Virus record (IMG/VR): IMGVR_UViG_3300014733_000004
Location: 1,182-65,181 of that record
DNA from: a virus
Taxonomy: Duplodnaviria > Caudoviricetes
DNA: 64,000 bases
Reading direction: 5' to 3' (one strand)
The notes beneath the pieces were generated by a model, which made no database searches, was not told the DNA's origin, and worked only from the letters and a program-made list of their open reading frames with translations. This document shows positions 17,836 to 61,170 of this stretch, in pieces (the stretch's first letter is position 1; every line of letters starts with the position of its first letter). The translations under genes and the position numbers were made by a program.

Positions 17836-17873
17836 GCATAGGGTTCGACGCCCCCGCCATGGCCCGGGACACT
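17836..17873 (+). promoter_or_regulatory. Late promoter motif copy (terS)
   Basis: GCATAGGGTTCGAC...GGGACACT; ATG follows 8 nt later with no SD. Confidence 0.75.
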
Positions 17874-17881
17874 TCCCGACC

Positions 17882-18901
17882 ATGGCCAAAGAACCGGCAG
17901 GGAAGAAGCCTGCACCCCGCAAGACCGTAGCCCCCAAGCCTGCAGCCCCCAAACGGGCCGCGGGCAAAGCCGCGCCTGCAGCGCCGGCATCGGCCAAGCC
18001 CGCCGCGAAGAAGGCAACCACGACGCGGTCGGCGAAGCCACCGGCCAAGAAGCAGGCACGCAAGGCTGCCCAGCCTCCGAAGAAAGCCGCTTCGCCGCAT
18101 GCGGAGCGCGCCCAGCTCGGGCTCACGGCCAAGCAGGAAAAATTCGTGGACGAGTACCTGGTGGACCTGAACGCGACCCAGGCCGCCATCCGGGCCGGCT
18201 ACAGCCCCGGCACGGCCCGCCAGATGGGCGCGGAGAACCTGTCAAAACCGGACATCCAACTGGCGGTGTCCGAAGCCAGGAAGCGCCAGCAGGCGCGCAC
18301 CGAGATCACCGCGGACCGTGTTCTGCAGGAGATCGTCAGCGTGGCGCTGGCGGATGCGCGCGAGCTGGTGGAGGTGCGAACCGGCTGCTGCCGCTGCTGC
18401 CACGGCGAAGGCCACAAGTACCAGCGGACCGTCGGCGAAATGAACCGCGACCGCGAGGACTGGGTGGAGAAAGGCAAGAACCCCGCCGAGTTCGATGAAG
18501 CGGGCGGCATCGGCTTCAACCCCCTGCTGCAGCCCAACCCCGAGTGCCCGCACTGCGGCGGCGATGGTGCCCCGCGCGTGGTGCTGAAGGACACCCGCAA
18601 GATCAGCGGCGCAGCTGCGGCCCTTTACGCCGGTGCGAAGCAGACCAAGGAGGGAATCGAGATCAAGATGCACTCCAAGATGGACGCCATCGAGAAGCTG
18701 GCGCGGCACCTGGGCGTCTACGAGAAGGACAACCAGCAGAAGGCCGACCCCCTGGCCGCGCTGCTGGCTCGGATCGCGAACGGCAACAGCAACGGGTTCA
18801 AGCCCGTGGCGGACGATCCCGAGGCGCCGCCGCCATCAGCCACGAACGGGTTCCAGCCGCGCGAGGACGGAGAGGCCGACGATGGCGGCGCCCCGGTCTA
18901 A
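17882..18901 (+). CDS. terS: Terminase small subunit with Lys/Ala/Pro-rich N-terminus and Cys-rich insertion
   Basis: LTAKQEKFVDEYLVDLNATQAAIRAGYS; CCRCC...CPHC insertion. Confidence 0.9.
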   Translation: MAKEPAGKKPAPRKTVAPKPAAPKRAAGKAAPAAPASAKPAAKKATTTRSAKPPAKKQARKAAQPPKKAASPHAERAQLGLTAKQEKFVDEYLVDLNATQAAIRAGYSPGTARQMGAENLSKPDIQLAVSEARKRQQARTEITADRVLQEIVSVALADARELVEVRTGCCRCCHGEGHKYQRTVGEMNRDREDWVEKGKNPAEFDEAGGIGFNPLLQPNPECPHCGGDGAPRVVLKDTRKISGAAAALYAGAKQTKEGIEIKMHSKMDAIEKLARHLGVYEKDNQQKADPLAALLARIANGNSNGFKPVADDPEAPPPSATNGFQPREDGEADDGGAPV

Positions 18902-20609
18902 GCGCGCCGCGGCGCCGGCCGAGCCCGGCACGCTGGACGAGGACGACGACGCCCTGGCGATCAAGCCCGGGCGGGAGGTAGACGCGCAGGTGGGCCATCG
19001 CTGGGACAACCGGCGGCGGCCCAAGCGCGGCCCGCACATCGCGGCCCACCCCACCATGATCCCCACCGACGAGGCCGAGCTGGCCCAGTGCCTCATGGAT
19101 CCGGAATGGCGCCTGTTCTCCGGCTGCCTGTACCAGATCATCGTCAAGGGCGAGAGCGACGACGACGACTCGTTCGTGATGCCGTTCAAGCCGAACCGCG
19201 CCCAGAGGCGGTTCATCATGCGGCTCTGGAACCGCAACCTCATCCTCAAGGCGCGGCAGCTCGGGTTCACCACGCTGGTCGCGCTGATGTGGCTGGACCA
19301 CGCCCTTTTCAATGGCAACCAGCGGTGCGGGATGATCGCGCAGGACCGCGAGACGGCTGAAGCGATCTTCCGCGACAAGGTGGTGTTCGCGTACGACCAC
19401 CTGCCGGAGGAGATCCGCCAGCGCTTCCCCCTCGCGCGCGCGAGCACCAAGGAGCTGCTGTTCGCCCACAACAACTCCAGCCTGCGCGTGGCCACCTCCG
19501 TGCGCGGCGGCACCATCCACCGCCTGCACGTCAGCGAGTTCGGGAAGATCTGCGCCAAGTTCCCGCACAAGGCGGTCGAGGTGGTCACGGGTTCCTTCCA
19601 AGCCGTGCCGCTGTCCGGGATCATCGTGGTGGAGAGCACCGCGGAAGGGCAGGACGGCGAGTTCTACCGGATGTGCCAGCGCGCCATGGCGCTGGTCACG
19701 GGCGCGGGCAGGCTGACGGCCTCGCAGTACCGCTTCCACTTCTATGCATGGTGGCAGGATCCCGCCTACCGCATGGACCCGGCGGGCGTGGTGGTCAGCC
19801 AGGAGCTGCAGGACTACTTCGACGAGATCGAAAGCCTCGTGGGCTGCACGATCGACACCGGGCAGCGAGCCTGGTACGTCGAGAAGCTGAACAACGACTT
19901 CGCGGGCGCCGAGGACCAGATGTGGCGGGAGTATCCGTCCACCCCGCAGGAGGCCTTCCAGCAATCCACGAAGGGCAACTACTACGCCAAGGAGCTGATG
20001 CTGGTGCGCAAGCGCGGCGGCATCACCACCGTGCCGCTGCTCGACCTGCCGGTGTTCACGTTCTGGGACATCGGCAGCAGCGATGGGACCGCGATCTGGT
20101 TCATGCAGTTCTCGCGGATGCAGGACCGCTTCATCGGGTACTACGAGGAGCACGACGAGGACCTGCGCCACTACGCCACTGAGCTGCAGCGCCGCGGCTT
20201 CGTCTACGGCGGGCACTTCCTACCTCACGACGCGGATCACAAGCGCCTCGGCGACTACAACAAGTCGGTGAAGGAGCAGCTGCAGGGGCTGCTGCCCGGC
20301 CACAAGTTCTTCATCGTCCCGCGCGTCACCGAGCTGATGACCGGCATCTTGACCACGCGCAAGCACTTCAAGTCGGCGTGGTTCGACCTCGAGGGCACGA
20401 AGCACGGAGTCGAACGGTTGGCCCACTACAAAAAAAAGTGGAGCCAGGCCGACGCTCGATACCTGGACAACACGCCCGACAAGAGCAACGGGTGCAGCGA
20501 AGGCGCAGACGCCTTTCGCCAGTGGGCACAGGCCAAGGAACTGGGCCTGCTCGAACTCATGAGCGACCAGGGCGGCTACGTCGAGGCACCGGTCCCATCC
20601 TATTACTGA
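18882..20609 (+). CDS. terL: Terminase large subunit
   Basis: Walker A ILKARQLGFTT, Walker B LHVSEFG, nuclease FWDIG. Confidence 0.95.
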   Translation: MAAPRSKRAAAPAEPGTLDEDDDALAIKPGREVDAQVGHRWDNRRRPKRGPHIAAHPTMIPTDEAELAQCLMDPEWRLFSGCLYQIIVKGESDDDDSFVMPFKPNRAQRRFIMRLWNRNLILKARQLGFTTLVALMWLDHALFNGNQRCGMIAQDRETAEAIFRDKVVFAYDHLPEEIRQRFPLARASTKELLFAHNNSSLRVATSVRGGTIHRLHVSEFGKICAKFPHKAVEVVTGSFQAVPLSGIIVVESTAEGQDGEFYRMCQRAMALVTGAGRLTASQYRFHFYAWWQDPAYRMDPAGVVVSQELQDYFDEIESLVGCTIDTGQRAWYVEKLNNDFAGAEDQMWREYPSTPQEAFQQSTKGNYYAKELMLVRKRGGITTVPLLDLPVFTFWDIGSSDGTAIWFMQFSRMQDRFIGYYEEHDEDLRHYATELQRRGFVYGGHFLPHDADHKRLGDYNKSVKEQLQGLLPGHKFFIVPRVTELMTGILTTRKHFKSAWFDLEGTKHGVERLAHYKKKWSQADARYLDNTPDKSNGCSEGADAFRQWAQAKELGLLELMSDQGGYVEAPVPSYY

Positions 20610-20619
20610 GCACGACACC

Positions 20620-22923: not shown

Positions 22924-23026
22924 CCGGCATAGGAGTTCGCCATTGCGCCGCCTGCCGGCGCAATGGTGGCTCCCCGTCATGGCAAGGGGCTCGCGGCCAG
23001 CCACCGCACCGTCCTGGAGACCTTCG

Positions 23027-23367: not shown

Positions 23368-23390
23368 GGCCCGCCGCGCGCGGGCTTTTT
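23368..23390 (+). terminator. Intrinsic terminator
   Basis: GGCCCGC-CGCGC-GCGGGCT followed by TTTT. Confidence 0.8.
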
Positions 23391-23402
23391 CATGGGTGCC
23401 CG

Positions 23403-23440
23403 GTATAGGGCATAGCGAAAACACCGCCTCTTCCGACACT
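23403..23440 (+). promoter_or_regulatory. Late promoter motif copy (scaffold/capsid operon)
   Basis: GTATAGGG and GACACT at the same spacing as the other copies, directly after a terminator. Confidence 0.65.
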
Positions 23441-23578
23441 GATACCCAAGCAGAACGCGCGAGCGGGACGCGATGCCCGGAGCGTGCATGCGCACCGGAT
23501 CCATGAGCAGATGGCGCGGCCTCGGCCGCTCCGGATTGCTGGCCCCTTGCGGCCACGGCGACATGTGGCGGGACAGGC

Positions 23579-27017: not shown

Positions 27018-27688
27018 AGCTGGAAGACCTGATTCGCCGCTTCCGCACCCTCGCCAAGGACAAGGTGGAACCCTACCTGTTCGAGAACGAGGACGTGGTC
27101 GACTGGCTCAACGATGCGCAGGCCCAGGCCTGCATTCGTCGTCGGCTCATCCGGGAGGACGCGCTGCCCGCCGTGTGCCGCATTGAGCTGGCCGCGGGGA
27201 AGCACACGTACCCCCTGCATGCGTCCGTCTTCGAGATCATCCATCTGCAGGCCCGGCGCGCGAGTGACAGCCAGCCGCGGCCCATGACCATCGTGACGCG
27301 GGAATGGCTGGAAGCCGAGGTGCCGGGCTGGCGCGACCGCGACTACCCCAGCGATTGGGTCATCCAAGACGACACCACGTTGCGCGTGGTGGGCCGCGTG
27401 GAGAACGGCGAGGTGCTGGAGCTGGAGTGCTACCGCCTTCCGCTGAAGCCCTTCGACGTGGGCAACGACACCGCCAAGCCCGAGATCCACGAGGCGCACC
27501 ACGAGCACCTGATCCAGTGGGCCCTTCACCGGGCGTTCAGCGTGCCTGACACCGAGAGCTTCGACCCCGACCGTGCCGTGCTGGCCGAACGCGCATTCAC
27601 GGCCTACTTCGGCCCGATGCCGGATGCGGACCTCCGACGCGACACGCGCGCCGACGTGCAGCACTTCAACCGCGGGGTGCTGCCGTGA
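27014..27688 (+). CDS. Head-tail adaptor-like protein
   Basis: YLFENEDVVDWLNDAQ...HEAHHEHLIQWALHRAF; position after the head genes. Confidence 0.65.
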   Translation: MKLEDLIRRFRTLAKDKVEPYLFENEDVVDWLNDAQAQACIRRRLIREDALPAVCRIELAAGKHTYPLHASVFEIIHLQARRASDSQPRPMTIVTREWLEAEVPGWRDRDYPSDWVIQDDTTLRVVGRVENGEVLELECYRLPLKPFDVGNDTAKPEIHEAHHEHLIQWALHRAFSVPDTESFDPDRAVLAERAFTAYFGPMPDADLRRDTRADVQHFNRGVLP

Positions 27689-27912
27689 CCGATACCGGAA
27701 CCATGCACATCGACCTGCGTGTGGGCGATTCCCTGCGTGTCGGTGATTCGGTCATCACGCTGGCCAAGAAGGACGGACAGCGCGCGCGCCTCACGGTGAC
27801 GGCCCCGCGCAGCACGCCCGTCATCCGCCCCAACCAACAACCCAGCGCGCAGGAGTGCGCTTCTTCGCCCATTGCGGGCAAGGAGCACACCCATGGCAAA
27901 CACCCTCTATGA
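27685..27912 (+). CDS. CsrA/RsmA-like small protein (alternative start 27703)
   Basis: LRVGDSLRVGD...GQRARLTVTAPRSTPVIR aligns by eye with CsrA RRVGETLMIGD...GNQVRIGVNAPKEVSVHR. Confidence 0.65.
   Translation: MTDTGTMHIDLRVGDSLRVGDSVITLAKKDGQRARLTVTAPRSTPVIRPNQQPSAQECASSPIAGKEHTHGKHPL
27845..27887 (+). promoter_or_regulatory. GGA-loop hairpin plus CAAGGAGCA SD, copy 1
   Basis: GCGCGCAGGAGTGCGC at 27845-27860; identical 16-mer at 36962. Confidence 0.6.
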
Positions 27913-46257: not shown

Positions 46258-46282
46258 GGCGCAATTGAACACAGGAGGCTCT

Positions 46283-48391
46283 ATGCGAGGCTTTCAACCG
46301 GCGCATGGCGCCAAGACCAAGGGCGGGAGCCGGCCGAAATTCGCCAACGGCGGCCCTGTGCGCGGCCCGGGCACCGGCACGTCGGACGAGGTGCAGGACG
46401 AGGTGCCTGAGGGCACGTACATCATGCCGGCCGACAGCACCGAAACCCTGGGCGAGCAGCGGCTGGCCGATATGGGCCGGGATGTGCCCGTGAGCCTGAG
46501 CAATGGCGAGTTCAAGATGCCGCCCGAGCAGGTGCACGCCATCGGGGTGCAGGCCCTGGACCAGGTGAAGAATGCGACCCACACACCGGTGGGCTTCGCG
46601 CCTGGAGCGCGGGCCGCGCAGCAGGAGGTCGGTGAGCCCCGGATGTTCTTCGCCGACGGCGGCGTGGTGGACGAGGAGCGCAAGCGCGCGCCCCTCTCGC
46701 CCTCGAACATCTTCCCGCAGGGCCACCCCAGCGCGGGCGCCAGCGTCTACGGCAGCGGGCCCGAGTTCGGCAGCGGGGGCCAGTTCGCGCGCGTGCCCGA
46801 CACGATCGGGCAGCAGCCCGGGCGCACCGTCGCACCCGCGGCGCAGCCGGCAGCGCCGCAGGCGCAGGTTCAGCGATCGGAGGCGGACCGCCAGGCACTG
46901 GTGAGCCAGATCCCGACCGGCCGCGGCCTGCCCGCGGCTCCCATCGAACAGCTGCCGGCCGTCTCCACGGCGGCGCGCCCGCCGGCCACCGCCGGCGCAG
47001 GCCCGGACCTGGGCGCAGCCGCACGCAGCGCGGCGGGCTTCGTGGCGGGGGCATTCCCGAACACGGCCAACGCCATCCGCGAGAGCGCGGCCGACGCCCG
47101 GACGGCATACCAGCAGGCCGGCATGGGCGCGGCATTGGGTCAGTCGGCCCGGGTGGCAGCGACTCCGCTGATCGGGCTGGCCGACGACGTGGCCACGGGC
47201 GCGGCCAAGCTGCTGGACCCCGCCGCCCAGGCGCTCAAGACGTTCGTCACCGGGGACAGCACGCCCATCGGGCAGGATGCTGCTGCACCGACCCCAGCGC
47301 CAGCCGCGCCAACGCCCGCGCGGGCCGCGCCGGTCGCGCCGCAGGCCGGTGCCGCCCCCGCGCCCGGCGTCGCGGCCCCCGCGCCGGCCATGGGCAAGTC
47401 CGCTGCAGTGCCAGCGGTCGCGCCGGCCGACCCGGCGCAGGTCCAGCGCGTGGCCGGCATGCAAGGCGTCTTCCGCAGCGGCAACAGCTACTCCGACAGC
47501 GAAGCCGGCGCCGTGGCCGGTGCCGCGCCGCGCGGCCTGCCCTCGGCACGCAACATGGCCGCCGCCGATGCGCTGGCTGAACGCTCCCAGGCGGAATCGC
47601 TGGGTCGAGTTACCGCCGCGCGGGGCTTCACGCCAGGCTTCACCGGCGTCATCGGCCAGACCTCGGGCGTGGGCAACATGTGGAGCCGCAGCCCTGAGCA
47701 GCTGCAACGGGACGCAACCATTTCCGCAAGCTCCATCAGCAACCCCGCGGAGCTGCGGCGCTTCCTGGGTGTTCGGCAGGTGACGGACGGGAACCGGGCG
47801 CAGATTGCCCAGGCGAACAACCAGACGGCGCTGGCTCAGACCCAGATGCAGGGCGAAGTGCAGCGCGACCTTGCTGCGCTGCGCGAGCAGGGCGACATGG
47901 GGCGCGCTGTGATGCGGGAAGCAGGGGACACCGGCCGGACCGTCCTCCGCGAGAAGGGCGAAAACGGCCGCGCGGCCGCGCGCAACGCCGTGGACGAGCG
48001 CCGCGTAGGAGTCGAGGAGCAGGTGCGGGGCTTCGACATCCGCAAGGGCCAGCGCGAGGAGCGCCTGTACCAGCGGTACGGTGAGGCGAAGACCCCCGAG
48101 GCCCGCGCAGCCATCGCGCAGGAGATCCGCGACCTGTCCGGCAAGGCCACCAGCCCGAAGGACGACCTGATGTTGGTGGGCGGCGGCCAGGAGTGGGACA
48201 CCACGGCCAACGCCATGCGCAACGTGCCGCAGCGGGTGTTCGATGCCCGCACCCGCCAGTTCGTGGGCCAGGGCGGCCAGGCAGCGTTGCCGGCGCTGAA
48301 GGACAACCCGGCGGCCATGGCGATCGTGAATAACCAGGCGCTGTCCAAGGAGCAGCGCGCGGCCAGCCTGCGCCAACTCGGCTACAACTGA
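46283..48391 (+). CDS. Probable DNA ejection/internal virion protein (702 aa)
   Basis: AGGAGG SD; GGPVRGPGTGTSD motif; low-complexity A/P/Q/G body; precedes the giant protein. Confidence 0.65.
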   Translation: MRGFQPAHGAKTKGGSRPKFANGGPVRGPGTGTSDEVQDEVPEGTYIMPADSTETLGEQRLADMGRDVPVSLSNGEFKMPPEQVHAIGVQALDQVKNATHTPVGFAPGARAAQQEVGEPRMFFADGGVVDEERKRAPLSPSNIFPQGHPSAGASVYGSGPEFGSGGQFARVPDTIGQQPGRTVAPAAQPAAPQAQVQRSEADRQALVSQIPTGRGLPAAPIEQLPAVSTAARPPATAGAGPDLGAAARSAAGFVAGAFPNTANAIRESAADARTAYQQAGMGAALGQSARVAATPLIGLADDVATGAAKLLDPAAQALKTFVTGDSTPIGQDAAAPTPAPAAPTPARAAPVAPQAGAAPAPGVAAPAPAMGKSAAVPAVAPADPAQVQRVAGMQGVFRSGNSYSDSEAGAVAGAAPRGLPSARNMAAADALAERSQAESLGRVTAARGFTPGFTGVIGQTSGVGNMWSRSPEQLQRDATISASSISNPAELRRFLGVRQVTDGNRAQIAQANNQTALAQTQMQGEVQRDLAALREQGDMGRAVMREAGDTGRTVLREKGENGRAAARNAVDERRVGVEEQVRGFDIRKGQREERLYQRYGEAKTPEARAAIAQEIRDLSGKATSPKDDLMLVGGGQEWDTTANAMRNVPQRVFDARTRQFVGQGGQAALPALKDNPAAMAIVNNQALSKEQRAASLRQLGYN

Positions 48392-48399
48392 CCGGCCCC

Positions 48400-48437
48400 G
48401 CATAGGGTTCGACGGCGCGGCCATACCCGGGGAAAGT
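48400..48437 (+). promoter_or_regulatory. Late promoter motif copy (giant protein)
   Basis: GCATAGGGTTCGAC...GGGAAAGT; ATG 7 nt later, no SD. Confidence 0.75.
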
Positions 48438-48444
48438 CCCGGGC

Positions 48445-51400
48445 ATGAGCGAAATCGACTCCATCCTCAAGGGCGCACCCGAGTACAAGCCCGGCGCGCA
48501 GAGCACCAGCACCGCGCCCCCTGCAGCGCCGCCTTCCGAGATCGATGCTGCCCTGAGCGATGCGCCGACCACCGCGCGCGGGCTCAAGGGATGGGGCCAG
48601 GACATCGCGGCTACCGCGGTGAAAGGCGCCATCGCGGTTCCCGAGGCCGTGGTGGGCCTCGCGGACATCCCCACCGGCGGCCGGGTGGGCAAGTTCCTGG
48701 AGAACGAGGGCGGCGCCGTGGGGTTCCGCCCCAAGCAGGCGCGCGAGGCCGTCAACGAATGGCACTCCGACGCAACCCTGGAGGCACAGCGGAAATTCCA
48801 GGAAGCCGATGGCATCGTGGACAAGGCCGTGACGGCCGTGCAGAACCCCAGCCTGATCGCCACGGCCATCGGGGAATCGCTCCCCTCCATGGGCGCAGGC
48901 GGTGTCGCCGCCCGGGGGCTCCTGACGGCAACGCGCCTGGGGCAGCTGGGGGCCAAGGGCGCCGCGCTCGCCGGGGCTGCCGGGGAAGGTCTGACCATGG
49001 CCGGCTCGCAGGCCGAGCAGATCCGCCAGGAAACTCCGGATGGGCTGCTGACGCCGGGCCAGGCCGGGCTCGCCGCCGCCACCGGTGCTGTGGGGGGCGC
49101 ATTCGGTGCGGTGGGCGGCCGGATCGCGCAGCGCCTAGGCATCGGCGACGCCGAAACGATGCTGGCGCAGGGTCAGAGCGGCATGGCCCGCCAGTTCGCC
49201 GACGAGGCGGCAGGCGCCGCCGTGAACCCGCTGCAGCAGCAGGCCGTGAAGAGCATCCCGCGCCACGTGATCGAGGGCGCGATCGCCGAGGGCCTGCTGG
49301 AGGAGCTGCCGCAGTCCGTCGCCGAGCAGATCTTCCAGAACGTCGCCCTCGACAAGCCCTGGTACGACCAGGTGGACTCGGCCATCGTGCTGGGCACCCT
49401 GTCCGGTGGGGCGATGGGGGCTGGTGCTGCTGGCTACCATGCCGCGGCGCGGCCGCGCGCCGGCGCAGTCGGCGAGAGCGATCCCGCCGCGGCCCTACCC
49501 GCCGGCAACGAACCGGCGGCCGAGGCCCCGGCGCGCAATCCCGGCCTCGAGCGGGTCAGCCAGGCCTTCGCGGAGCAGCTGCGCATGCTGCAGGAGCAGG
49601 AGCAGGGCGAAGTGCTCGGGCCCCAGTCCACGCCGCCGGACGGTGCCGCCGCCCTGGCCGAGCAGCGCGCCACCGCAGAGGCGCAGCGCCAGGCCGACAT
49701 GGAGGCCTCGCGCGCGGTGGAGAGCCCAGACGACGAGATCTACCAGTCCACCGGCGCCGAGGTGCCGCGCTCCGTGCGCATGGGCATCAACCCCGCTGGC
49801 GGCCCGCTGTCCGCTGGCGCCGCCATGGCGGTGGACACCGGCGTGTCCGACCAGATGCAGCAGGCCGCCGCGCTGGCCCAGGCGGCCGAGGCCGCAGAGA
49901 AGGGCGGTAAGGCCCAGAAGCAGGAACAGCCAGAGCGGGCCCCGCAGGGCGCCGACCCGGAGACGGGCGAGATCCCTGGACCCGATGCGGTCGCCAACTG
50001 GAGCGACGCACAGCTGTCCGCGTCCTTCCGCAGCGCCCAGGGCCGCGACGTGCGCATCAAGCTGGCGCAGGAGCTGTCGCGCCGAAAGGCCGCCCGCGCC
50101 GCCGAGCACTCCCCCCCCGTGAAAGGAAGCACCGATGGCTACCAAACCCAGCCAGCAAGCCCCCCACCACCTGCAGGAGCAGCGCAGGCCCCGGCCGTCG
50201 CCGCTGCTGGCGCACCAGCGCAAGGGGCACTGAGCAATGCCGGCACCACGACTGCGGACCCTGGAGCGCAAGGAAAAACAGCGGCTGGCGCGAAAGCAGC
50301 GCCGGAAAGCGCGGACCAGCGCGCCCAGCGCATCGACGCCGCCGGCCAGACCTGGACCCGACTGCCTACCGTGCAGCGCCAGGTGGTGGCCGAGCAGCTG
50401 AAGGGGCTCAAGCCCGTCCTGCAGAAGAACCTCGCCGGCGCGAAATGGGACAACCTGAACGCCGATCTGAAGCGGAAGATCGCCGACCTGATCGCGCCCG
50501 CGCAGGAGGCCGCCGCCGCGCCGGCGCGAGCACGTGCAGCACCCGTCGCCATGGCGCGGGGCACCACGTTCCCGCCGCTGGACGCCCCGCCAGCGCCGGC
50601 TGCCGCCGCGGCGAGTGCGCCGCCGAAGGCTGCTGGCACCAGCGCCCGTCGGGCGCGCGCAGCTGCGGCTCCGGTATCAGCGCCTGCTATGGTGCAAGCC
50701 GCGGCGCAAGAGGCGGCCACCAGCCTGAGCAATGACCTGCCGGAGCCGACGGCGGCGCAGAAGGACGCAGGCAACTACAAGAAGGGCCACGTCAAGGTCA
50801 ACGGCCACGACATCAGCATCGAGAACCCCGCGGGCACGCGCCGCCGCCCCGAATGGCCGCCGCTGCAGAACCACTACGGGTACATCAAGGGTTCCAAGGG
50901 TGCGGACAAGGATCACGTCGACGTGTTCATGACCGACCGGGCGGAGGATGCCGGCCTGCCGGTATTCGTGGTCGACCAGGTGAACCGCGACGGATCTTTC
51001 GACGAGCACAAGGTGGTGATGGGTGCGGCCGACGAGGCCGAGGCTCGCAGCACCTACCTGGGGAACAACGAGAAGGGGTGGACGGGGCTCGGCGGGATCA
51101 CCCGGATGACGCAGGCCGAGTTCAAGGACTGGGTGCGTGACCCTGCCAGAACCGTGAAGCCCGCCGCGGCACCGGTGACCGGCGACGCGTTGCCCCCGGT
51201 GGCGACGGGGGAGGCCGGCCCAGCCCCCGCCAAGGATGCGGAACCAGCACAGGCATCAGCACCAGCGCTGCCGGTTGCGGAGAGCGGATCTTCTGCGCCC
51301 CCGGCGCCCCAGGCGCTGCCGGCTGCGGCGGAGACGGTGCCGCAACGCATGAAGCGCGTGAAGGCGGAAAAGGCCGCCGCGCCTGCAGCACCCGCCGCGG

Positions 51401-54400
51401 CGGGTGAAGCGAGCCCGGCAGCCAAGCCGAAGACCGTGCCCGAGAAGATGAAGGACGCGAAGGCCAAGCGCGAGAGCAAGGCCGTGCGCGAAGCGCGGGA
51501 GGCCGAGGAGCGCCGCGCCGCCTACTTCGCCCCTGGCAACGTTGTGCGGGGATACGGCGGCGGGTTCGATCGCGTGGTCAGCTACCAGCCGGCCGACACG
51601 GATGGGCGCTGGAGCGTCACCGTGCGCGAGGTGCAGAAGGACGGGAACGGCGCGTGGGCGGACAAGGCTGGCGCGGTCGACCGCACCCACGGGACCGAGC
51701 CCTCCAAGATGAACTATGCGGCGGGCCCGGCTGCCCGGATGAAGGTCGACCCCGCGCCGGCCGCGGCCGTTGCCGTCGAGCCCCTCGTTCCCGCCTCAGC
51801 CCCCGCCCTGGTGTTGGACGCGGGCACCAGGGAAGACGGCCTGGGTGCCGGTCGGATCACGGACTTCGGCGAGAAGATCGGCGGGGCACGCAAGGACCAG
51901 GCGACCAGGGCGCCCAAGGCGATAAAGCCGCGGTCCTCCGATGAGCGGCCCGCCTGGGCCCGCCGGTTCGAGATCAGCCAGATCGCGAAGAGCAGCCGCC
52001 TGGGCGAGGAGGGCCGTTGGGTCGTGCGCGATGCGCGCAGCCTCGATGCCTTCAAGCAGCCGCGCCGCGTGGGGGCGGAGACGTATGCGACGCGCGAGGA
52101 TGCGGAGCAGGCCGTGCCGCTGCTGGCCGTCTCTCAGAAGCACAGCCCTGTGCCTCTCCGGGGTGACGGCGCCGGGTACGAGATCTGGCGGGAGGTCAGC
52201 GACCGCAAGCGGGTGAAGGTGGTGGACCAGGTGTTCTCCACCCGCGACGCGGCGCTGGAGTACATGGCCAAGAACGCGCAGGCCATCATCGAGACGAACA
52301 CCACCTTCGGGGAGGCCGACCTTCCCCGGCCGCCGTCAGAAGAGCGCGTGGGCGTGCCGCGCCGTTCCGGAGATGCCCGCGACAGCGATTTCATGGACGT
52401 CTTCGGCTTCCGTGGCGTGGAGTTCGGAAACTGGAACAACCAGCAGGAGCGCCAGCAGCTGCTCAACGACGCCTACGACGGCCTGCTCGACCTCGCGGAG
52501 GTGATGGGCGTGCCGCCGCGAGCGATCAGCCTGAATGGCGACCTCGCCCTGGCATTCGGGGCTCGCGGCCACGGGTTGAGCAGCGCCCGCGCGCACTACG
52601 AACCCGCGAAGGCGGTCATCAACCTGACGAAGATGAACGGCGCGGGCTCGCTGGCGCACGAGTGGTTCCATGCACTGGATCACTATTTCGGCCGGCAGGA
52701 TGGAAAGGCACCCGCGGAATGGGTGGTGGGCAAGGACGGCACCCGCTCCCTGGAGATCAACGACGCTGCGGAGAGCAACATGGTCAGCGGCGGCACGCGA
52801 GGTGAGCGCTCCGCCATGCGGCCCCAGCTGCGCGAGGCCTTCGCGGACGTGATGCGCACCATCGCGCGCAAGGCGGAAGCCTACGTGGAGGACACGGCGC
52901 GGGCCGACCGGTTCGTCGCCTCCGCGCGTGAGGATGTGAGACGGCAGCTGAATTCGATCCGTGCGGACCTCGCGCGTGATCTGGACGCCAGGTACTACAA
53001 GCGGTTCAACAAGGCGGCTTCTGCGGATCAGCTGGCGGAATTCGATTCCGTGGCGGAGAAGATCCTGGCTGGCGAATTGCTGGACCTGCGGATCGAAACG
53101 AAGGGCAGCGCGCGGTCGATCGCCTCCGGCATGCGGTGGACGAATGACGCGCTCAACCGCATCAGCGCCGTCATCAAGGCCGTGCGCGGCCGGCAGGGCT
53201 TCTCGGCGGCGCAGGACGGGCCCCTCGACCGCATGGGCGGCCTCATGCGGAACTACAGCGCCCGGCTCAAGATGTTGGCCGACGCCCAGCAGGCGAACGA
53301 GAAGTCGCGCATGGTGCCCACCGACTTCGTGATGAGCGCGAAGGAACTGGACCAGGGGCGCGGCCAGGACTACTGGACCCGCCCGCACGAACTGGCGGCC
53401 CGAGCATTCCAGGGCTACGTGGAGGACAAGATCGCCGCCGGCGGCGGACGCAGCCCGTTCCTGAACTACGGGCCCGAGGGCGTGGCGATCCCCACACCCT
53501 GGGGCTTCAAACGTCCGTTCCCTGCGGGCGCCGAGCGGGTGGCGATCAATCAGGCACTGGAGCGGCTGGCTGCGACGATCCAGACCCGCGAGAGCGATTC
53601 CGGTGGCGTGGCGCTGTTCCGCCGCGGAGCGGAGGATGACCTGGGCGCCGGCATGGCGGCCGACCTCCTGCGCATCATGGGCAAGGGGGACGGTTTCTCG
53701 GCCGCGGCCCAGCGGCAGGCCGTGGACACGGTGCGCGCCACCGTCAACCCGATCGTGGCGGCTTGGCAGAACGCCCCGGAGGTGGTGGTGGCCTACGACC
53801 TGGACGACCCGGTCATCCCGCAGCGCGTGCGCGACGCCGACCTGCGCCAGCGCACCGGCGGTGCCCATGGGGCTCCGGAGGGCTTCTATTTCGGTGGCAA
53901 GGCGTACCTGATGGCCTCGCGCCTCACCACGCCGGCCGATGCCGCACGGGTGCTGTACCACGAGGTGGCCGGCCACCACGGCCTGCGGGGGCTCTTCGGG
54001 CCGGAGCTGGACAAGATCCTGAACCAGGTGGCCACCATGCGCCGCGCGGACGTGGACGCCAAGATGGCCGAGTACGGCATGCGTGGCGTGGACCGCATCA
54101 GCCGCATCCGGGCGGCGGAGGAGGTGCTGGCGGAGATGGCCGAGAAGAACCCGCAGCAGTCCTTCGTGCAGCGGGCCGTGGCCGCGATCCGCAACTTCCT
54201 GCGCGCGCACGTGCCCGGGTTCGGAAGCCTGCGCCTGCGTGACGCGGACATCATCCAGGCCTACATCCTGCCGGCGCGCAACTGGGTGGAACGGGCCGCC
54301 GCGGAGCGCGAGCGCGGAATGGGCTCGGCAGCCATGCAGTACAGCCTGGCGCAGGACGAAGCCCGGTCCGGGTTCGCGGCCGAGGTGCGTGCATCCATCA

Positions 54401-57400
54401 CCGCCGGCCTGAACAACGACGAACGTGCGCTGCGTGCCCAGGTGCCGCTCGGCATCGAGACGCCGGCAGCGTTGGAGGCGCTGGGCGTGGTGCGCAAGCC
54501 GGTGGTGACGAACCGCAACCTGATCGCCAAGATGCACTTCGAGCACGGCGTGCCGCGCGCGGAGCTGGAGCGGCTGGGGGAGTTGCTGTCGAACCCGGTG
54601 ATGGTGTTCAAGTCGGACACCCAGCCCGGGCGGATGGTGGTGGTGACCAGCCTGGTGGTGCGCGGAAACCCGGTGGTGGTGGCCGTCGACCCGAACGGCG
54701 CTAGCAACCGGGCCGAGGTGGTCTATGTGCCCAGCGCCTACCCGAAGGACAACGCGGACCGGACGTTCACGCGCTGGATCCGGGACGGCCTGCTGCAGTT
54801 CGCGAACAAAAAAGAAAGCCGACACCTCGCCACGACGGCCAGGCTCCAATTGCCTGGGGTGGTACAGCGAGCTGCCGGCTTCCGCGCCGATTATAAAACC
54901 GAGGCCGATCTGCCGCAAACGGGGGACGGTCCGGATGTGATGTTCAGCCGCGAGCGCATCGCCGCGCTGAAGGAATCGGCCCTGGACCAGATCACGCAGA
55001 CGATGAGCCACCCCGGCCAGGTGTCGCTCTGGGACAAGACGATCGGCACGATGCGCAACCTGGCCGAGCGTGCGCCCGCGTTCAAGCCGGTGTTCGAGTC
55101 GGCCCAGCGCTTCATCGATGACGTGTCCATGCTGGGCAACGACGCGGCCGACATGGCCCCGCGCCTGCTGCCGCGCGTGGACAGCTGGCGAGACCTGACC
55201 AAGAAGCCGATCACGGCGGCGGACAACAAGGCCGTGGCCCGCCCGCTCTTCGAGGGCACCCTGATGTGGGCGCGCGACATCGACGGAACACCGGTGCTGC
55301 TGGACGACCTCACGGCCAAGTACCAGAACCTGCCGGCCGATCAGAAGGCCCAGCTGCTGCTGCGCGGCGGCCGGCTGGACCCGAAGATCCTGACCGCCTG
55401 GCAGGGCCTGCCGGTGGGCATGTACGAGGCCAACGTGAACACCAGCTTCAACAGCCGGGTGCTCAAGGCCGGCGTGGTGTGGAGCCAGCGGGAGCTGGAA
55501 ACCATGTTCGGGCTCGACGCCAACCAGGTGAGCCTCTACCAAGAGGGCCGGGCCGCCATCGACCGCTCCATCGACATGACCGCGCGCGCCGACATGCTGC
55601 GCAGCCTGGGCGATGAGTACGCGGGCATGCGCGACGCGGTGCTGGCGCAGGAAACCATGGACGACGCCGTGGAGCTGCTGACCCGCACGCTGATGGACGA
55701 CGCCCGCGACCGGCCCGAATGGTCCGAGCGGCTGATGGAACTCAACAACTCGGTGGTGAAGGCCCGGGAGAGGGCGCAGCAGCTGATGGACGAGGGCTAT
55801 GCCCCGCTGTCGCGGTTCGGCCGCTACACCGTGGACGTGGTGGACGCCGCGGGCGATCGCCAGTACTTCGGCATGTTCGAGACCAAGGGCGATTCCAACC
55901 GGATGAAGGCCGAGATGGAAAAGCAGTTCCCCGGCGCCACCGTCACCCAGGGGACCATGAGCCAGGACGCGTTCAAGCTGTTCGCGGGTGTGACGCCCGA
56001 GAGCCTGGAGATGTTCGGGAGCATGCTGGGGCTGGACGGCACGGGCGACGACCCGAAGGACAAGGCGTTCCAGGCCTACCTGCAGCTGGCCAAGAACAAC
56101 CACAGCGCGCTCAAGCGCCTGATCCATCGCAAGGGCATCGCGGGCTACAGCGAGGACGTGGGCCGCGTGCTGGCGGGCTTCGTCTACTCGAATGCCCGCC
56201 TGGGCGCTGGCGGCCTGAACGCCGGCACCATGGAGAGCGCGATCAACGCCATCCCGAAGGAGCAGGGCGAGCTGAAAGACTTGGCCATGGGGCTGCGCGA
56301 CTACATCGCGAATCCCCAGGAGGAGGGCCAGGCGGTGCGCGGCATGCTGTTCGCCCAGTACCTGGGGGGCTCGCTGGCTTCCGCGTTCGTGAATATGACC
56401 CAGCCCTTCGCCGTCACGCTGCCGTGGCTCACGCAGTTCGGCGGGATGAAGCGGGCCGGCGCGCAGATGGCGCGTGCGCTCAAGGACATGAGCCGCAAGG
56501 GCTTCGAGTACGAGCCCGATCTGGCCGCCGCGATGCAGTCCGCAGAGGAGGATGGTGTGGTGTCTCCCCAGGAGATCCACCAGCTGATGGCGCAGGCCCG
56601 CGGCACGGGGTCGCTGCGCACGGGCGACGGCACGAAGGCGGGGGACGCGCGCGCCGCGGCGGCCAACAACTGGGAGCGCGTGAAGGTGGCGTGGGGCCAG
56701 CCGTTCGCCCTGGCCGAGCAGTTCAACCGCCGCAGCACCTTCATCGCCGCCTACCGGATCGCCAAGGAGCAGGGGATGGCCGAGCCGTCCAACTTCGCCC
56801 GCAAGGCCGTGCTCGAAACCCAGTTCCTCTACTCCAAGGCCAACAAGATGCGCTTCGCGCGCGGCGCGGTGGGCGGCACGCTGATGACCTTCAAGACCTA
56901 CAGCGTGTCCTACCTGGAGCTGATGCACCGCATGTGGACGCAGGGCGGGCCAGAGGGGAAGCGGGCCGTGGGCTGGGCCGTCGCCATGCTGCTGCTGATG
57001 TCGGGCGCGGGCGGCCTGCCGTTCATGGAGGATGCCGAGGATCTGATCGACGGCGCCGGCCAGCTCATGGGCTACAACCTGAGCGCCAAGCAGTGGCGCA
57101 AGCAGGCGCTGCGCGACGTGGTGGGGAAGGAGGTGGCCGACTTCCTGGAGCAGGGGCTGTCCGGGCTGCCGGGCGCGCCCGTCGATGTCTCGGGCCGGCT
57201 CGGAATGGGCAACCTGCTGCCCGGCACCGGCCTGTTCCTGTCGAAGCAGAACCGCGAGCGCGACCTGCTGGAGGTGGCCGGCCCGGCCGGTGACGTGGTG
57301 GCCCGGGGCTTCACCGCCGTGCGCAAGGGGCTGACCGGCGACGTGGGCGGCGCGGCGCTCGAGCTGTCCCCCACCGCGGTGCGCAACGCGGTCAAGGGCA

Positions 57401-57816
57401 TCGACATGGCCGCGACCGGGATCTACAAGGACAAGAAGGGCTACAAGGTCATCGACACGACGCTGGCCGAGGCGGGATCGAAATTCCTGGGCTTCCAGCC
57501 CAAGAGCGTGGCCGAGGTGCAGGAGGCCAACAGCTTCATGCAGCGCACGAAGAGCTTCTACACGCAGACCAGCAGCGAGATCAAAGCGCAGTGGGCGGAT
57601 GCGCTCTATCGCAAGGACGACACCGCCCTGGCCGCGGCGCGCGAGCGGCTGGCCGACTGGAACCGGAACAATCCGGAGCAGCCGATCGTGGTGAAGATGC
57701 CGGACGTGTGGAAGCGGGTGCGCGAGATGGACAAGGACCGCACGCAGCGGATCGCCGACACCGCGCCGAAAGCGCTGCGCCAGCAGATGCGCGAGGCAGG
57801 GCAGGCCCCAGCATAG
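48445..57816 (+). CDS. Giant polyvalent virion protein (3123 aa): PPase-like, LPD5, LPD1, metallopeptidase, PBECR/MuF-C-like nuclease, PLxRFG, LPD38-like
   Basis: GNYKKGH...HYGYIKG..GADKDHVDVF; ITDFGEKIGGARKD; SLAHEWFHALDHY; YHEVAGHHGLR; YAPLSRFG. Confidence 0.85.
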   Translation: MSEIDSILKGAPEYKPGAQSTSTAPPAAPPSEIDAALSDAPTTARGLKGWGQDIAATAVKGAIAVPEAVVGLADIPTGGRVGKFLENEGGAVGFRPKQAREAVNEWHSDATLEAQRKFQEADGIVDKAVTAVQNPSLIATAIGESLPSMGAGGVAARGLLTATRLGQLGAKGAALAGAAGEGLTMAGSQAEQIRQETPDGLLTPGQAGLAAATGAVGGAFGAVGGRIAQRLGIGDAETMLAQGQSGMARQFADEAAGAAVNPLQQQAVKSIPRHVIEGAIAEGLLEELPQSVAEQIFQNVALDKPWYDQVDSAIVLGTLSGGAMGAGAAGYHAAARPRAGAVGESDPAAALPAGNEPAAEAPARNPGLERVSQAFAEQLRMLQEQEQGEVLGPQSTPPDGAAALAEQRATAEAQRQADMEASRAVESPDDEIYQSTGAEVPRSVRMGINPAGGPLSAGAAMAVDTGVSDQMQQAAALAQAAEAAEKGGKAQKQEQPERAPQGADPETGEIPGPDAVANWSDAQLSASFRSAQGRDVRIKLAQELSRRKAARAAEHSPPVKGSTDGYQTQPASPPPPAGAAQAPAVAAAGAPAQGALSNAGTTTADPGAQGKTAAGAKAAPESADQRAQRIDAAGQTWTRLPTVQRQVVAEQLKGLKPVLQKNLAGAKWDNLNADLKRKIADLIAPAQEAAAAPARARAAPVAMARGTTFPPLDAPPAPAAAAASAPPKAAGTSARRARAAAAPVSAPAMVQAAAQEAATSLSNDLPEPTAAQKDAGNYKKGHVKVNGHDISIENPAGTRRRPEWPPLQNHYGYIKGSKGADKDHVDVFMTDRAEDAGLPVFVVDQVNRDGSFDEHKVVMGAADEAEARSTYLGNNEKGWTGLGGITRMTQAEFKDWVRDPARTVKPAAAPVTGDALPPVATGEAGPAPAKDAEPAQASAPALPVAESGSSAPPAPQALPAAAETVPQRMKRVKAEKAAAPAAPAAAGEASPAAKPKTVPEKMKDAKAKRESKAVREAREAEERRAAYFAPGNVVRGYGGGFDRVVSYQPADTDGRWSVTVREVQKDGNGAWADKAGAVDRTHGTEPSKMNYAAGPAARMKVDPAPAAAVAVEPLVPASAPALVLDAGTREDGLGAGRITDFGEKIGGARKDQATRAPKAIKPRSSDERPAWARRFEISQIAKSSRLGEEGRWVVRDARSLDAFKQPRRVGAETYATREDAEQAVPLLAVSQKHSPVPLRGDGAGYEIWREVSDRKRVKVVDQVFSTRDAALEYMAKNAQAIIETNTTFGEADLPRPPSEERVGVPRRSGDARDSDFMDVFGFRGVEFGNWNNQQERQQLLNDAYDGLLDLAEVMGVPPRAISLNGDLALAFGARGHGLSSARAHYEPAKAVINLTKMNGAGSLAHEWFHALDHYFGRQDGKAPAEWVVGKDGTRSLEINDAAESNMVSGGTRGERSAMRPQLREAFADVMRTIARKAEAYVEDTARADRFVASAREDVRRQLNSIRADLARDLDARYYKRFNKAASADQLAEFDSVAEKILAGELLDLRIETKGSARSIASGMRWTNDALNRISAVIKAVRGRQGFSAAQDGPLDRMGGLMRNYSARLKMLADAQQANEKSRMVPTDFVMSAKELDQGRGQDYWTRPHELAARAFQGYVEDKIAAGGGRSPFLNYGPEGVAIPTPWGFKRPFPAGAERVAINQALERLAATIQTRESDSGGVALFRRGAEDDLGAGMAADLLRIMGKGDGFSAAAQRQAVDTVRATVNPIVAAWQNAPEVVVAYDLDDPVIPQRVRDADLRQRTGGAHGAPEGFYFGGKAYLMASRLTTPADAARVLYHEVAGHHGLRGLFGPELDKILNQVATMRRADVDAKMAEYGMRGVDRISRIRAAEEVLAEMAEKNPQQSFVQRAVAAIRNFLRAHVPGFGSLRLRDADIIQAYILPARNWVERAAAERERGMGSAAMQYSLAQDEARSGFAAEVRASITAGLNNDERALRAQVPLGIETPAALEALGVVRKPVVTNRNLIAKMHFEHGVPRAELERLGELLSNPVMVFKSDTQPGRMVVVTSLVVRGNPVVVAVDPNGASNRAEVVYVPSAYPKDNADRTFTRWIRDGLLQFANKKESRHLATTARLQLPGVVQRAAGFRADYKTEADLPQTGDGPDVMFSRERIAALKESALDQITQTMSHPGQVSLWDKTIGTMRNLAERAPAFKPVFESAQRFIDDVSMLGNDAADMAPRLLPRVDSWRDLTKKPITAADNKAVARPLFEGTLMWARDIDGTPVLLDDLTAKYQNLPADQKAQLLLRGGRLDPKILTAWQGLPVGMYEANVNTSFNSRVLKAGVVWSQRELETMFGLDANQVSLYQEGRAAIDRSIDMTARADMLRSLGDEYAGMRDAVLAQETMDDAVELLTRTLMDDARDRPEWSERLMELNNSVVKARERAQQLMDEGYAPLSRFGRYTVDVVDAAGDRQYFGMFETKGDSNRMKAEMEKQFPGATVTQGTMSQDAFKLFAGVTPESLEMFGSMLGLDGTGDDPKDKAFQAYLQLAKNNHSALKRLIHRKGIAGYSEDVGRVLAGFVYSNARLGAGGLNAGTMESAINAIPKEQGELKDLAMGLRDYIANPQEEGQAVRGMLFAQYLGGSLASAFVNMTQPFAVTLPWLTQFGGMKRAGAQMARALKDMSRKGFEYEPDLAAAMQSAEEDGVVSPQEIHQLMAQARGTGSLRTGDGTKAGDARAAAANNWERVKVAWGQPFALAEQFNRRSTFIAAYRIAKEQGMAEPSNFARKAVLETQFLYSKANKMRFARGAVGGTLMTFKTYSVSYLELMHRMWTQGGPEGKRAVGWAVAMLLLMSGAGGLPFMEDAEDLIDGAGQLMGYNLSAKQWRKQALRDVVGKEVADFLEQGLSGLPGAPVDVSGRLGMGNLLPGTGLFLSKQNRERDLLEVAGPAGDVVARGFTAVRKGLTGDVGGAALELSPTAVRNAVKGIDMAATGIYKDKKGYKVIDTTLAEAGSKFLGFQPKSVAEVQEANSFMQRTKSFYTQTSSEIKAQWADALYRKDDTALAAARERLADWNRNNPEQPIVVKMPDVWKRVREMDKDRTQRIADTAPKALRQQMREAGQAPA

Positions 57817-57848
57817 GGTTAGGCGAGGTGGCGGCCGGGCGGGACACT
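57811..57848 (+). promoter_or_regulatory. Late promoter motif copy
   Basis: GCATAGGGTTAGGC...GGGACACT; ATG 7 nt later, no SD. Confidence 0.75.
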
Positions 57849-57855
57849 GCCCGGC

Positions 57856-58215
57856 ATGTCCACCCCGGCCAAGCTCAAGAAGATCACCATCTACCAGGGC
57901 GCGACCTTCCGCAAACGCCTGCGGTGGGAGTCGCCTGCCGGCGCTCCCATCGACCTGACGGGCGCCACCGCGCGCATGCAGGTCCGCCTGGAAAAGGAGA
58001 CCCCGACCACGCTGGCGGACCTGACCACCGAAAACGGCGGCATCACGCTGGGCGGCGCTTCGGGCACGGTGGACCTGTACCTGAGCGACGCGGCCACCGC
58101 GGCCATGGGCTGGGAATCTGGCGTGTGGGATCTGGAGATCGTGCACCCCAGCGGCGATGTCACCCGCCTGGCCGAGGGCTCCATCGGGGTTTCCAAGGAG
58201 GTGACGCGTGGCTGA
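57856..58215 (+). CDS. Tail-tip structural protein (119 aa)
   Basis: ITIYQGATF...PIDLTGATARMQVR...WDLEIV, a common phage baseplate-like small domain. Confidence 0.7.
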   Translation: MSTPAKLKKITIYQGATFRKRLRWESPAGAPIDLTGATARMQVRLEKETPTTLADLTTENGGITLGGASGTVDLYLSDAATAAMGWESGVWDLEIVHPSGDVTRLAEGSIGVSKEVTRG

Positions 58216-60072: not shown

Positions 60073-60614
60073 CCAGCTACAAGTTGACCCGCGAGGGCTA
60101 CGTCATCCGTGATGGGTCCGTCAAAGTTCCGACTGGCGACACGCCGGCCTACCCGAATGCCAATCCCGACTTCCTCGCATACAAGGACTGGCTCACTGCC
60201 GGCGGTGTGCCCGAGCCTGCTGACCCGCTGCCCGCGGCGGAAGTCTGGGAGCGCATCAAGGCCGAGCGAGACCGGCGAAAGTACCTCGGCGTCAAGGTGG
60301 GAGCGCACTGGTTCCACAGCGACGACGCAAGCCGCATCCAGCAGATGTCGCTGATGCTGATGGGGCAGGCCATGCCGGCCGGAATCCAGTGGAAAACGCT
60401 CACATCCACACCGCCGCCGGTGTTCGTGGCCATGACGCCGGCCTTGGCCGTGGCGATCTTCAACGCCACCGCAGCGAGCGACATGGCGGTGTTCGCCGCC
60501 GCCGAAGCGCACCGCGTTGCCATGGAGGCATCGGACGATCCGGGAGCCTACGACTTCACCAGCGGGTGGCCGGTGTCCGTAGAAGACGAATTGCACACTG
60601 TGCACAGGGACTGA
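60069..60614 (+). CDS. Tail fibre assembly protein (DUF4376-like C-terminal domain)
   Basis: NPDFLAYKDWLTAG; IKAERDRR...WFHSD...IQWKTL. Confidence 0.75.
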   Translation: MTSYKLTREGYVIRDGSVKVPTGDTPAYPNANPDFLAYKDWLTAGGVPEPADPLPAAEVWERIKAERDRRKYLGVKVGAHWFHSDDASRIQQMSLMLMGQAMPAGIQWKTLTSTPPPVFVAMTPALAVAIFNATAASDMAVFAAAEAHRVAMEASDDPGAYDFTSGWPVSVEDELHTVHRD

Positions 60615-60616
60615 CC

Positions 60617-61138
60617 ATGCTGCTTGCTTCGTACACCGGCACGCGCCCGGGGCTTCAGGGCTTGGCCAACCGCGCTATCCGCTTCCGCCTGGGCGGACCC
60701 TACAGCCACACCGAGCTGGTGTTCGAGCCAGGCGACGGCGTGGACGCGCTGATGCCCGATGGCACGTGCGCGGCCGGCGGGGATGGATCGCTGTGGTGCG
60801 GCTCCAGCGTGGCGGCCGAGCCCGTGCCTGCGTATTCGGCCCGCCGGCCCGGGCGGACAGGCGGCGTCCGGCTGAAGAGGGTGGTGCTGGAGCCTGCCCG
60901 CTGGGAGCTGCTTCCGCTGCCCGGCGACGCGCAGCGGGCGGCGCGGTGGTTCCTCGAGCACGAGGGAGCGCTCTACGACTGGCAGCTGGTCCTCGGCTTC
61001 GTCGCGTGGGCGATCCCCCAGAAGGCCTCGCGCTGGACCTGCTCGGAAGCGGTGGCCGCGGCGGCCGCCTTCCCCGACCCGGAACGCTTCGATCCGTGCG
61101 TCCTTCGGGCCGCCGTGGCCCGGTTCGCCCCCGTATAG
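60617..61138 (+). CDS. Permuted papain-like NlpC/P60 protein
   Basis: His in YSHTELV precedes Cys in YDW...WTCSE. Confidence 0.7.
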   Translation: MLLASYTGTRPGLQGLANRAIRFRLGGPYSHTELVFEPGDGVDALMPDGTCAAGGDGSLWCGSSVAAEPVPAYSARRPGRTGGVRLKRVVLEPARWELLPLPGDAQRAARWFLEHEGALYDWQLVLGFVAWAIPQKASRWTCSEAVAAAAAFPDPERFDPCVLRAAVARFAPV

Positions 61139-61170
61139 GGTTCGTCAGATCCGCCCCGGCCCGGAATGAT
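61133..61170 (+). promoter_or_regulatory. Late promoter motif copy (lysis operon)
   Basis: GTATAGGGTTCGTCA...GGAATGAT; ATG 8 nt later, no SD. Confidence 0.75.

Follow-up and report, generated by a model that had tools for sequence, protein, structure and literature searches.

Six cassettes in the late region of an F116-like prophage

The 64,000-nucleotide stretch analysed here (hereafter the window; positions 1,182 to 65,181 of IMG/VR record IMGVR_UViG_3300014733_000004; 68% G+C) lies on the minus strand of a genome of 4.95 Mb, at G000:C29:122723-186722, and is part of a prophage whose tyrosine integrase (L227:1178-2401; G000:C29:187900-189123) lies beside host guaA and guaB, ~1.2-2.4 kb past the left window end. 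The nearest named phages are the Pseudomonas F116-like Hollowayviruses, with ~68% DNA identity across terS to capsid, Ralstonia and Burkholderia podoviruses being more distant; the prophage is an F116-like temperate podovirus. Its late genes in the window encode a Terminase_2 small subunit, a P22-type portal, a Phage_capsid_3 capsid, a holin and an endolysin, as well as a polyvalent protein of 3,123 amino acids (aa; gene 48445-57816) with InPase, LPD1 and MuF_C domains. Between these genes recurs a bipartite element, here called a cassette, that reads CCCnGYATAGGG(TT)MGRC, 17 bp and RAnAnT, with six same-strand intergenic copies at 17836, 23403, 46220, 48400, 57811 and 61133. Read directly in the sequence, these copies stand where an earlier note on this DNA had placed them, with the spacing of ATAGGG, 24 nucleotides (nt) and a hexamer that it had described. 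They also head late blocks, as it had proposed: terS/terL/portal; the gene in scaffold position and the capsid gene; a 702-aa protein; the 3,123-aa protein; small tail-region proteins; and holin/endolysin. The whole account rests on sequence and comparison.

The core ATAGGG by itself is not enriched in the window (14 matches versus 8.5 expected). Genome-wide (4.95 Mb) there are five copies of the strict 12-mer GYATAGGGTTMG, all of them in the window, on the + strand and between genes, and we estimate its chance expectation in the window at ~0.015. In 200 bacterial genomes of the same family, this 12-mer gave scattered single matches within coding sequence, in the reverse frame of E-P-Y-A codons, with no cluster, and an exact-word scan of IMG/VR returned scattered single matches that were uninformative. 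Mimicry of a tRNA T-arm (GGTTCGA) was considered and rejected, as the matches in other genomes are coding sequence in which ARAGORN finds no tRNA. A two-block weight matrix trained solely on the cassettes of other phages ranked the six window copies as the top six sites of the host genome (22.4-36.7 bits), the next site scoring 19.9 bits. A host regulon was likewise rejected, since no host site scores with the bipartite matrix.

The earlier note had listed a degenerate seventh copy at 22927, which we do not count as a member because its box has an insertion and it has neither an nAnnnT hexamer in register nor a matrix score. The segment 22927-22965 holds a degenerate box (GGCATAGGAGTTCGCC) after the portal stop codon and a 7-bp hairpin (TGCGCCG-CCTGC-CGGCGCA) that abuts the ATG at 22963, without a -10-like hexamer; the segment may represent a cassette that has decayed, or else an RNA 3'-end element.

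The six cassettes, all on the + strand, fall into two classes, of which class A is predicted to yield leaderless mRNAs and class B leadered ones. Cassette 1 (class A; 17831-17884; 35.8 bits), at the head of terS-terL-portal, comprises a box at 17833-17850, the -35-like hexamer TCGACG at 17845-17850, the -10-like hexamer GACACT at 17868-17873 and an ATG at 17882, with a hairpin at 17857-17885 in which the ATG is paired (predicted folding free energy, dG, -15.8). Cassette 4 (class A; 48395-48447; 28.7 bits), at the head of the 3,123-aa polyvalent protein gene, has TCGACG at 48409-48414, GAAAGT at 48432-48437 and ATG at 48445, again paired in a hairpin (48422-48447; dG -15.3). Cassette 5 (class A; 57806-57860; 36.7 bits), at the head of the small tail-region genes, contains the TAG stop codon of the giant gene inside its ATAGGG, followed by TAGGCG at 57820-57825, GACACT at 57843-57848 and ATG at 57856, with a hairpin at 57830-57860 (dG -23.2). 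Cassette 6 (class A; 61128-61181; 25.3 bits), at the head of holin-endolysin, has TCGTCA at 61142-61147, AATGAT at 61165-61170, ATG at 61179 and a hairpin at 61158-61177 (dG -15.0).

The two class B copies are built on the same plan. Cassette 2 (23398-23447; 22.4 bits), at the head of the scaffold-position gene (23579) and the capsid gene, carries the variant box CCCGGTATAGGGCATAGCGA, which stands before the orthologous gene in 10 genomes, and the hexamer GACACT at 23435-23440, with no hairpin (dG 0) and a leader of more than 100 nt. Twelve nucleotides ahead of it, an intrinsic terminator on the + strand (23369-23390; GCCCGC-CGCGC-GCGGGC, then TTTTT), read directly in the sequence and not listed by a simple consensus scan, closes the terS-portal unit. 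Cassette 3 (46215-46285; 30.5 bits), at the head of the 702-aa protein gene, has TAGACA at 46229-46234, AACATT at 46252-46257, a leader of ~19 nt, AGGAGG at 46273-46278 and ATG at 46283. The leader that follows the scaffold-gene promoter (23441-23480) is kept in relatives as cccaagcagaacgcgcgagcggga... (G209 46435, G206 9392 and G201 34701) and may be a structured 5' untranslated region or a small open reading frame (ORF).

Conservation at orthologous junctions

Eleven related genomes or fragments were scanned, giving a set of 45 cassettes in 12 genomes with the consensus CCC-n-G-Y-A-T-A-G-G-G-T-T-M-G-R-C, 17 bp, R-A-n-A-n-T. A cassette stands ahead of terS in 12/12 genomes; terS homologues from IMG/VR (58-94% amino-acid identity) have the same cassette directly upstream, as do the Pseudomonas F116-like phages F1Pa and LKA5, in which the box reads GTAGGGTTCGAC. 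The scaffold-position gene is preceded by a cassette in 10 genomes, always in the variant form GGTATAGGGC(A/T)TAG, the 702-aa gene in six and the giant gene in four, and orthologous cassettes also precede the small tail-region genes and the lysis genes. By position, orthologues of cassette 3 were found in G204, G205, G202, F1Pa and G209, those of cassette 4 in G204, G201 and G209, those of cassette 5 in G201 and G209, and those of cassette 6 at G209 12906 and G201 3046. Because the cassette is kept at these orthologous junctions even though the proteins are merely 40-80% identical, it is under selection.

Three relatives carry an extra cassette (G201 13979, G202 15826 and G204 34051) ahead of the gene orthologous to 27893 or 28309 of the window; no cassette stands at this junction in the window itself, where a CsrA-like gene fills the position. 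In LKA5 (L226:6721-6756) and F1Pa (40190-40218), the scaffold-gene promoter box GTAGGGTT pairs with an upstream AACCCTAC, and the resulting T-tailed hairpin is annotated as a terminator in F116-like phages, so that terminator and promoter box overlap. The LKA5 record (KC900378.1, L226:2470-2720) annotates terS from 2720, whereas the conserved cassette and the N-terminal alignment give an ATG at 2517, by which terS is annotated ~200 nt too far downstream and truncated by ~68 codons. The same record carries promoters predicted by BPROM, one of which falls within terS when the gene is begun at ATG 2517. The searchable literature yielded no description of the motif, of F116-group or Bcep22 promoters, of leaderless late genes or of gp169, the product of the gene before terS.

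Promoter-like architecture

Across the 45 cassettes the distance from box to hexamer is constant within 1 nt, while that from hexamer to start codon varies. Position 2 of the hexamer is A and position 6 is T in 45/45 cassettes (nAnnnT within 1 nt of register, which we estimate would be found by chance at ~8% of sites; consensus RAnAnT); these are its sole invariant positions and are the two bases captured by sigma70 region 2. The -35-like hexamers TCGACG, TAGACA, TAGGCG and TCGTCA lie 17 bp ahead of the -10 hexamer, as the earlier note had described. The TMGRC elements to which they belong share 3-5 of 6 positions with TTGACA, at a spacer of 17 bp; ATAGCG, the variant at the scaffold gene, is a poorer fit.

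Other polymerases and sigma factors were considered. A T7-like promoter (TATAGGG) was rejected, as no phage RNA polymerase was found and the conservation upstream of ATAGGG is short; a search of the genome for a T7-type polymerase (PF00940) gave no match, as did the same search of the control genomes. A phage sigma factor was rejected as well: the prophage has no sigma domain, and the nearby extracytoplasmic function sigma factor (C29:196283-196828) belongs to the host, its gene lying past the integrase and guaA. A scan of the late region for consensus sigma70 promoters found none. With no T7-type polymerase detected, no prophage sigma domain and no consensus sigma70 promoter, weak sigma70 promoters that need a phage activator are the most economical reading, and the six cassettes very probably form a late promoter regulon of the phage. 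The idea of dispersed late promoters is supported by a fixed box-to-hexamer distance alongside a variable start-codon distance, a late region devoid of consensus sigma70 promoters and no host site that fits the bipartite motif.

Predicted leaderless starts

The distance from hexamer to start codon is bimodal. In 25/44 cassettes it is 6-8 nt, with C at -1 in most of these, and in the other 19 it is at least 25 nt; a lone 10-nt distance is an artefact of calling an ORF from a GTG, the real start there being an ATG led by a Shine-Dalgarno (SD) sequence ~27 nt downstream. No real distance in the 45 cassettes falls between 9 and 24 nt, a gap expected if RNA starts ~7 nt past the hexamer, because the only options for a gene are then to begin at +1 or to have a leader in which an SD fits. 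Several of the long-distance (class B) copies have AGGAG or AGGAGG before the ATG, for example at 46273-46278. In the window, the short-distance ATG codons at 17882, 48445, 57856 and 61179 lie 7-8 nt past the hexamer, and none of these four has an SD-like 4-6-mer, compared with 23/52 window genes overall that do. No earlier start codon exists in the frame of the ATG beside the hexamer, and terS aligns at its N-terminus from residue 1 onwards. The suggestion of leaderless mRNAs, already present in the earlier note, is therefore strengthened by the bimodal distances, and we regard leaderless starts at the class A genes as likely.

A predicted hairpin around the -10-like hexamer

A feature absent from the earlier note is that every class A copy has a GC-rich inverted repeat with the hexamer in its loop (for example CCCGGG-GAAAGT-CCCGGG); this repeat often continues to CATG...CATG, which pairs the start codon as well. 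Mean predicted folding dG is -13.4 kcal/mol for class A versus -3.4 kcal/mol for class B; among 20 non-redundant class A copies the mean is -15.2, and the ATG is at least partly paired in 14/20. The arm sequences vary among cassettes (GCGCC/GGCGC, GCACG/CGTGC, GCCCGG/CCGGGC) and co-vary. When left arms were joined to the right arm of another cassette, the fold was weaker in 1000/1000 trials (-13.0 observed, -9.2 +/- 0.6 after swapping), and a column-wise covariation score of 0.200 versus 0.115 was reached by 2/500 shuffles; arm-swap folding is the better measure of the two, because register shifts between cassettes blur the columns.

The hairpin follows the genomic context. At class A copies the upstream gene stops 0-10 nt before the box, without a terminator and twice with its TAG stop codon inside ATAGGG, and read-through RNA must therefore cross the cassette; class B copies come after a terminator or a counter-oriented gene block. 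Class A geometry fits a gate on such RNA, since the predicted late start lies 3' of the 5' arm. Whether the hairpin acts on read-through RNA we regard as nearly an even question, with the balance a little to the negative.

A different reading of these features is that the cassettes are RNA elements for processing, stability or protein binding (CsrA-like, for instance) in one long late transcript, which control translation of the next gene and are not promoters. The hairpin does co-vary and abuts or includes the AUG, many copies have GGA at the stem-loop border, and the phage has a CsrA-like gene. Yet class B copies hold box and hexamer at the same spacing without a hairpin, and the loop positions that are conserved coincide exactly with A2 and T6 of the -10; in the predicted folds the GG of GGA mostly takes part in the stem and is not exposed in the loop, folding has no strand bias and the window has no Rfam match. 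The Burkholderia phage DC1, moreover, lacks the cassette, despite CsrA-like genes having been reported in Bcep22-type phages including DC1 (PMC7366521). We consider RNA elements of this kind improbable. As for the CsrA-like gene itself (27685-27912, + strand), it lies among virion genes and matches Pfam CsrA at 22 bits, below the cut-off, with beta-strand motifs and the VIR motif kept; CsrA homologues have been reported across the F116/Bcep22/PEp14 phage group and are typical of it (PMC7366521).

The promoters could also be real while the inverted repeat acts in DNA, either by presenting the -10 in a cruciform or a single-strand hairpin or as the operator of a dimeric repressor over it. In keeping with such a role, the repeat is centred on the -10 hexamer, both strands fold equally well, and hairpin promoters are known for the virion RNA polymerase of phage N4. 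The arms, on the other hand, vary together instead of being conserved, which speaks against an operator recognized by its sequence; the giant protein shows no detectable N4-type polymerase, its domains being InPase, LPD1 and MuF_C and its one PDB match a portal; and hairpins occur only where the ATG abuts the promoter, often pairing it, neither of which a DNA role requires. A DNA-level function therefore seems improbable too, to about the same degree as RNA elements in a long transcript, although the equal folding of the two strands means that predicted structure does not distinguish an RNA-level from a DNA-level role. In the PDB match of the giant protein, its InPase domain (residues 782-906) corresponds to the C-terminal portion of gp19, a phage portal of solved structure (9b41_L, E = 1.4e-20).

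A candidate activator

The last gene of the early-right operon (17322-17831, + strand), between the NinG-like gene and terS, encodes gp169, a 169-aa candidate late activator; it comes after RusA-like and NinG-like genes and stops 4 nt before the first box. Its AlphaFold2 model (predicted local distance difference test, pLDDT, 77) has a winged helix (residues ~13-79), then a small beta domain and a 40-residue C-terminal helix. The winged-helix fold matches IdeR, MarR and Fur-type domains (Z 10-10.8, root-mean-square deviation ~2 A, 64-67 residues aligned); the best Foldseek matches are DtxR/IdeR, and the fold searches list generic winged-helix regulators only. By sequence, gp169 matches phrog_8117 (annotated as of unknown function), and its database relatives are Comamonadaceae proteins. 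A Pfam scan (E <= 0.01) gave just a weak match to the AbiEi_4 helix-turn-helix and no Mor/C, Ogr/Delta or Q family, and a profile search of PDB sequences returned nothing under E = 0.2.

A gp169 homologue was found in 11/11 cassette-bearing relatives, including F1Pa and LKA5 at 47-49% identity, and both gp169 and cassette were absent in 5/5 more distant relatives that share the terS family (Burkholderia DC1, Serratia Parlo, Pseudomonas Skulduggery, Ralstonia YL3 and a Klebsiella phage). The most divergent forms of gp169 accompany altered boxes, namely GTAGGGTT in the F116 type, CTCAGGTT in the G205/L169 type and CTCTAGGGTT in the L170/171 type; the G205/L169-type protein is 35% identical, though terS there is still 59% identical. 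This pattern of presence and absence, together with the modelled fold, is suggestive of gp169 as the late activator, a role towards which we lean slightly.

The earlier note had recognised no Q-like gene in the window. Pfam indeed finds no Q homologue, and the statement needs qualification only in that a winged-helix protein occupies the Q position. One may ask, then, whether gp169 is a Q-like antiterminator loaded on RNA polymerase at each cassette, not an activator of initiation. Its location, after the NinG-like gene and ahead of the first late gene, and its size of 169 aa are those of a Q protein. Against this, gp169 has no similarity to the Pfam Q families, there would be six loading sites versus one in Q systems, the late region has no strong constitutive promoters for Q to act on, and class A genes start at the predicted +1, which leaves no room for a promoter-proximal pause site and terminator. 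We judge antitermination by gp169 to be very unlikely.

Proposed mechanism of late expression

Taken as a whole, we consider it probable, from sequence comparison and modelling, that these are activator-dependent sigma70 late promoters, leaderless at the four hairpin-embedded sites, with gp169 as the likely activator. In the mechanism that we propose, the sigma70 RNA polymerase of the host would read the six cassettes as late promoters, each with a weak -35 (TMGRC) and a weak -10 (RAnAnT) 17 bp apart. A phage-specific box of 11-12 bp (CCCnGYATAGGG), which abuts the -35 and is centred near -44, would probably be bound by a phage activator, for which the dimer-like winged-helix gp169 is the best candidate. 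At the four junctions without room for a terminator, transcription would start at the A of the ATG or 1 nt earlier and give a leaderless mRNA. The class A -10 is placed there within a hairpin loop, and the 3' arm of this GC-rich hairpin extends up to or over the ATG, so RNA arriving from upstream would fold and bury an ATG that has no SD, a double lock; RNA started at the promoter would lack the 5' arm and be translatable, its leaderless 5' end serving as the key. At the two insulated sites, one behind a terminator and one behind a counter-oriented gene block, the same promoter would give an ordinary leader with no hairpin, in one case with an AGGAGG SD.

Several observations weigh against this account. 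The -10 fits TATAAT at about 3 of 6 positions, without T at -12, and the -35 fits its consensus at 3-5 of 6. The absence of SDs at four genes is weak evidence alone, because just 44% of the phage genes have a strict SD. Sense and antisense hairpins are equally stable (-15.2 versus -15.3), and there is no evident reason to block read-through translation between two late genes, for example at 48403. With respect to gp169, its co-occurrence with the cassette lacks phylogenetic independence, and very different types of gp169 go with boxes that differ little.

A broader generalization is that the whole temperate podovirus lineage, from Pseudomonas F116 to Comamonadaceae prophages, may express most late units only as leaderless mRNAs from AUG-occluding hairpin promoters, such that the choice of start site would set translatability, and that gp169 may found a new activator family. 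We put this forward tentatively and think it somewhat less probable than its opposite.

Comparison with known systems

The cassettes offer a testable regulatory map (late promoters, a likely activator and a rule for start sites and translation) for a widespread phage group that includes the Pseudomonas aeruginosa transducing phage F116; our literature search found no published transcription map for the F116-like group. They correct gene starts, such as that of LKA5 terS, and would add a case of leaderless translation of bulk virion and lysis genes in a proteobacterial phage, and an orthogonal switch for gene expression could be made from the box and gp169. We regard them as an extension of known biology, not a surprise or a new principle, because activator-dependent late promoters, leaderless mRNAs and gating by a promoter within a hairpin are all established.

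The late and middle promoters of Mu are activated by C and Mor, which act at about -43.5, and the late promoters of P2 and P4 depend on Ogr and Delta. Like the arrangement proposed here, these systems have several dispersed late promoters with a weak core, an activator site near -43.5 at the -35, and the host sigma70 polymerase. By contrast, gp169 has no sequence similarity to Mor/C or Ogr, the box is weakly symmetric (CCC-N6-GGG) and most of the promoters are predicted to be leaderless. The lambda cI mRNA made from PRM is leaderless, starting at the A of the AUG ~7 nt past the -10, with cI itself as activator at -42 beside the -35. The start at the AUG and the dependence on an activator would be alike in the two cases, but in lambda this concerns a single lysogeny gene, whereas here it would extend to the terminase, tail and lysis genes and that of the injected giant protein, and be kept throughout a phage lineage. 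With lambda Q, the candidate gp169 shares a gene position after a NinG-like gene and before the late genes, and a possible role in the late switch; the two differ in that gp169 has no homology to Q, in that Q acts at one PR' while multiple promoters are present here, and in that there is no promoter-proximal terminator here.

The closest parallel to the proposed gate is in T4, where upstream RNA hides the initiation site of genes e, soc, 49 and I-TevI and a late promoter within the hairpin yields translatable RNA (PMC3014915). As proposed for the class A cassettes, the late promoter of the gene e type lies in the 5' part of the structure, and the late RNA is without the 5' arm. T4 late RNA, however, has a leader with an SD and depends on the gp55 sigma factor, whereas here the RNA is predicted to start at the AUG, with no SD, in a design that recurs at most late units.

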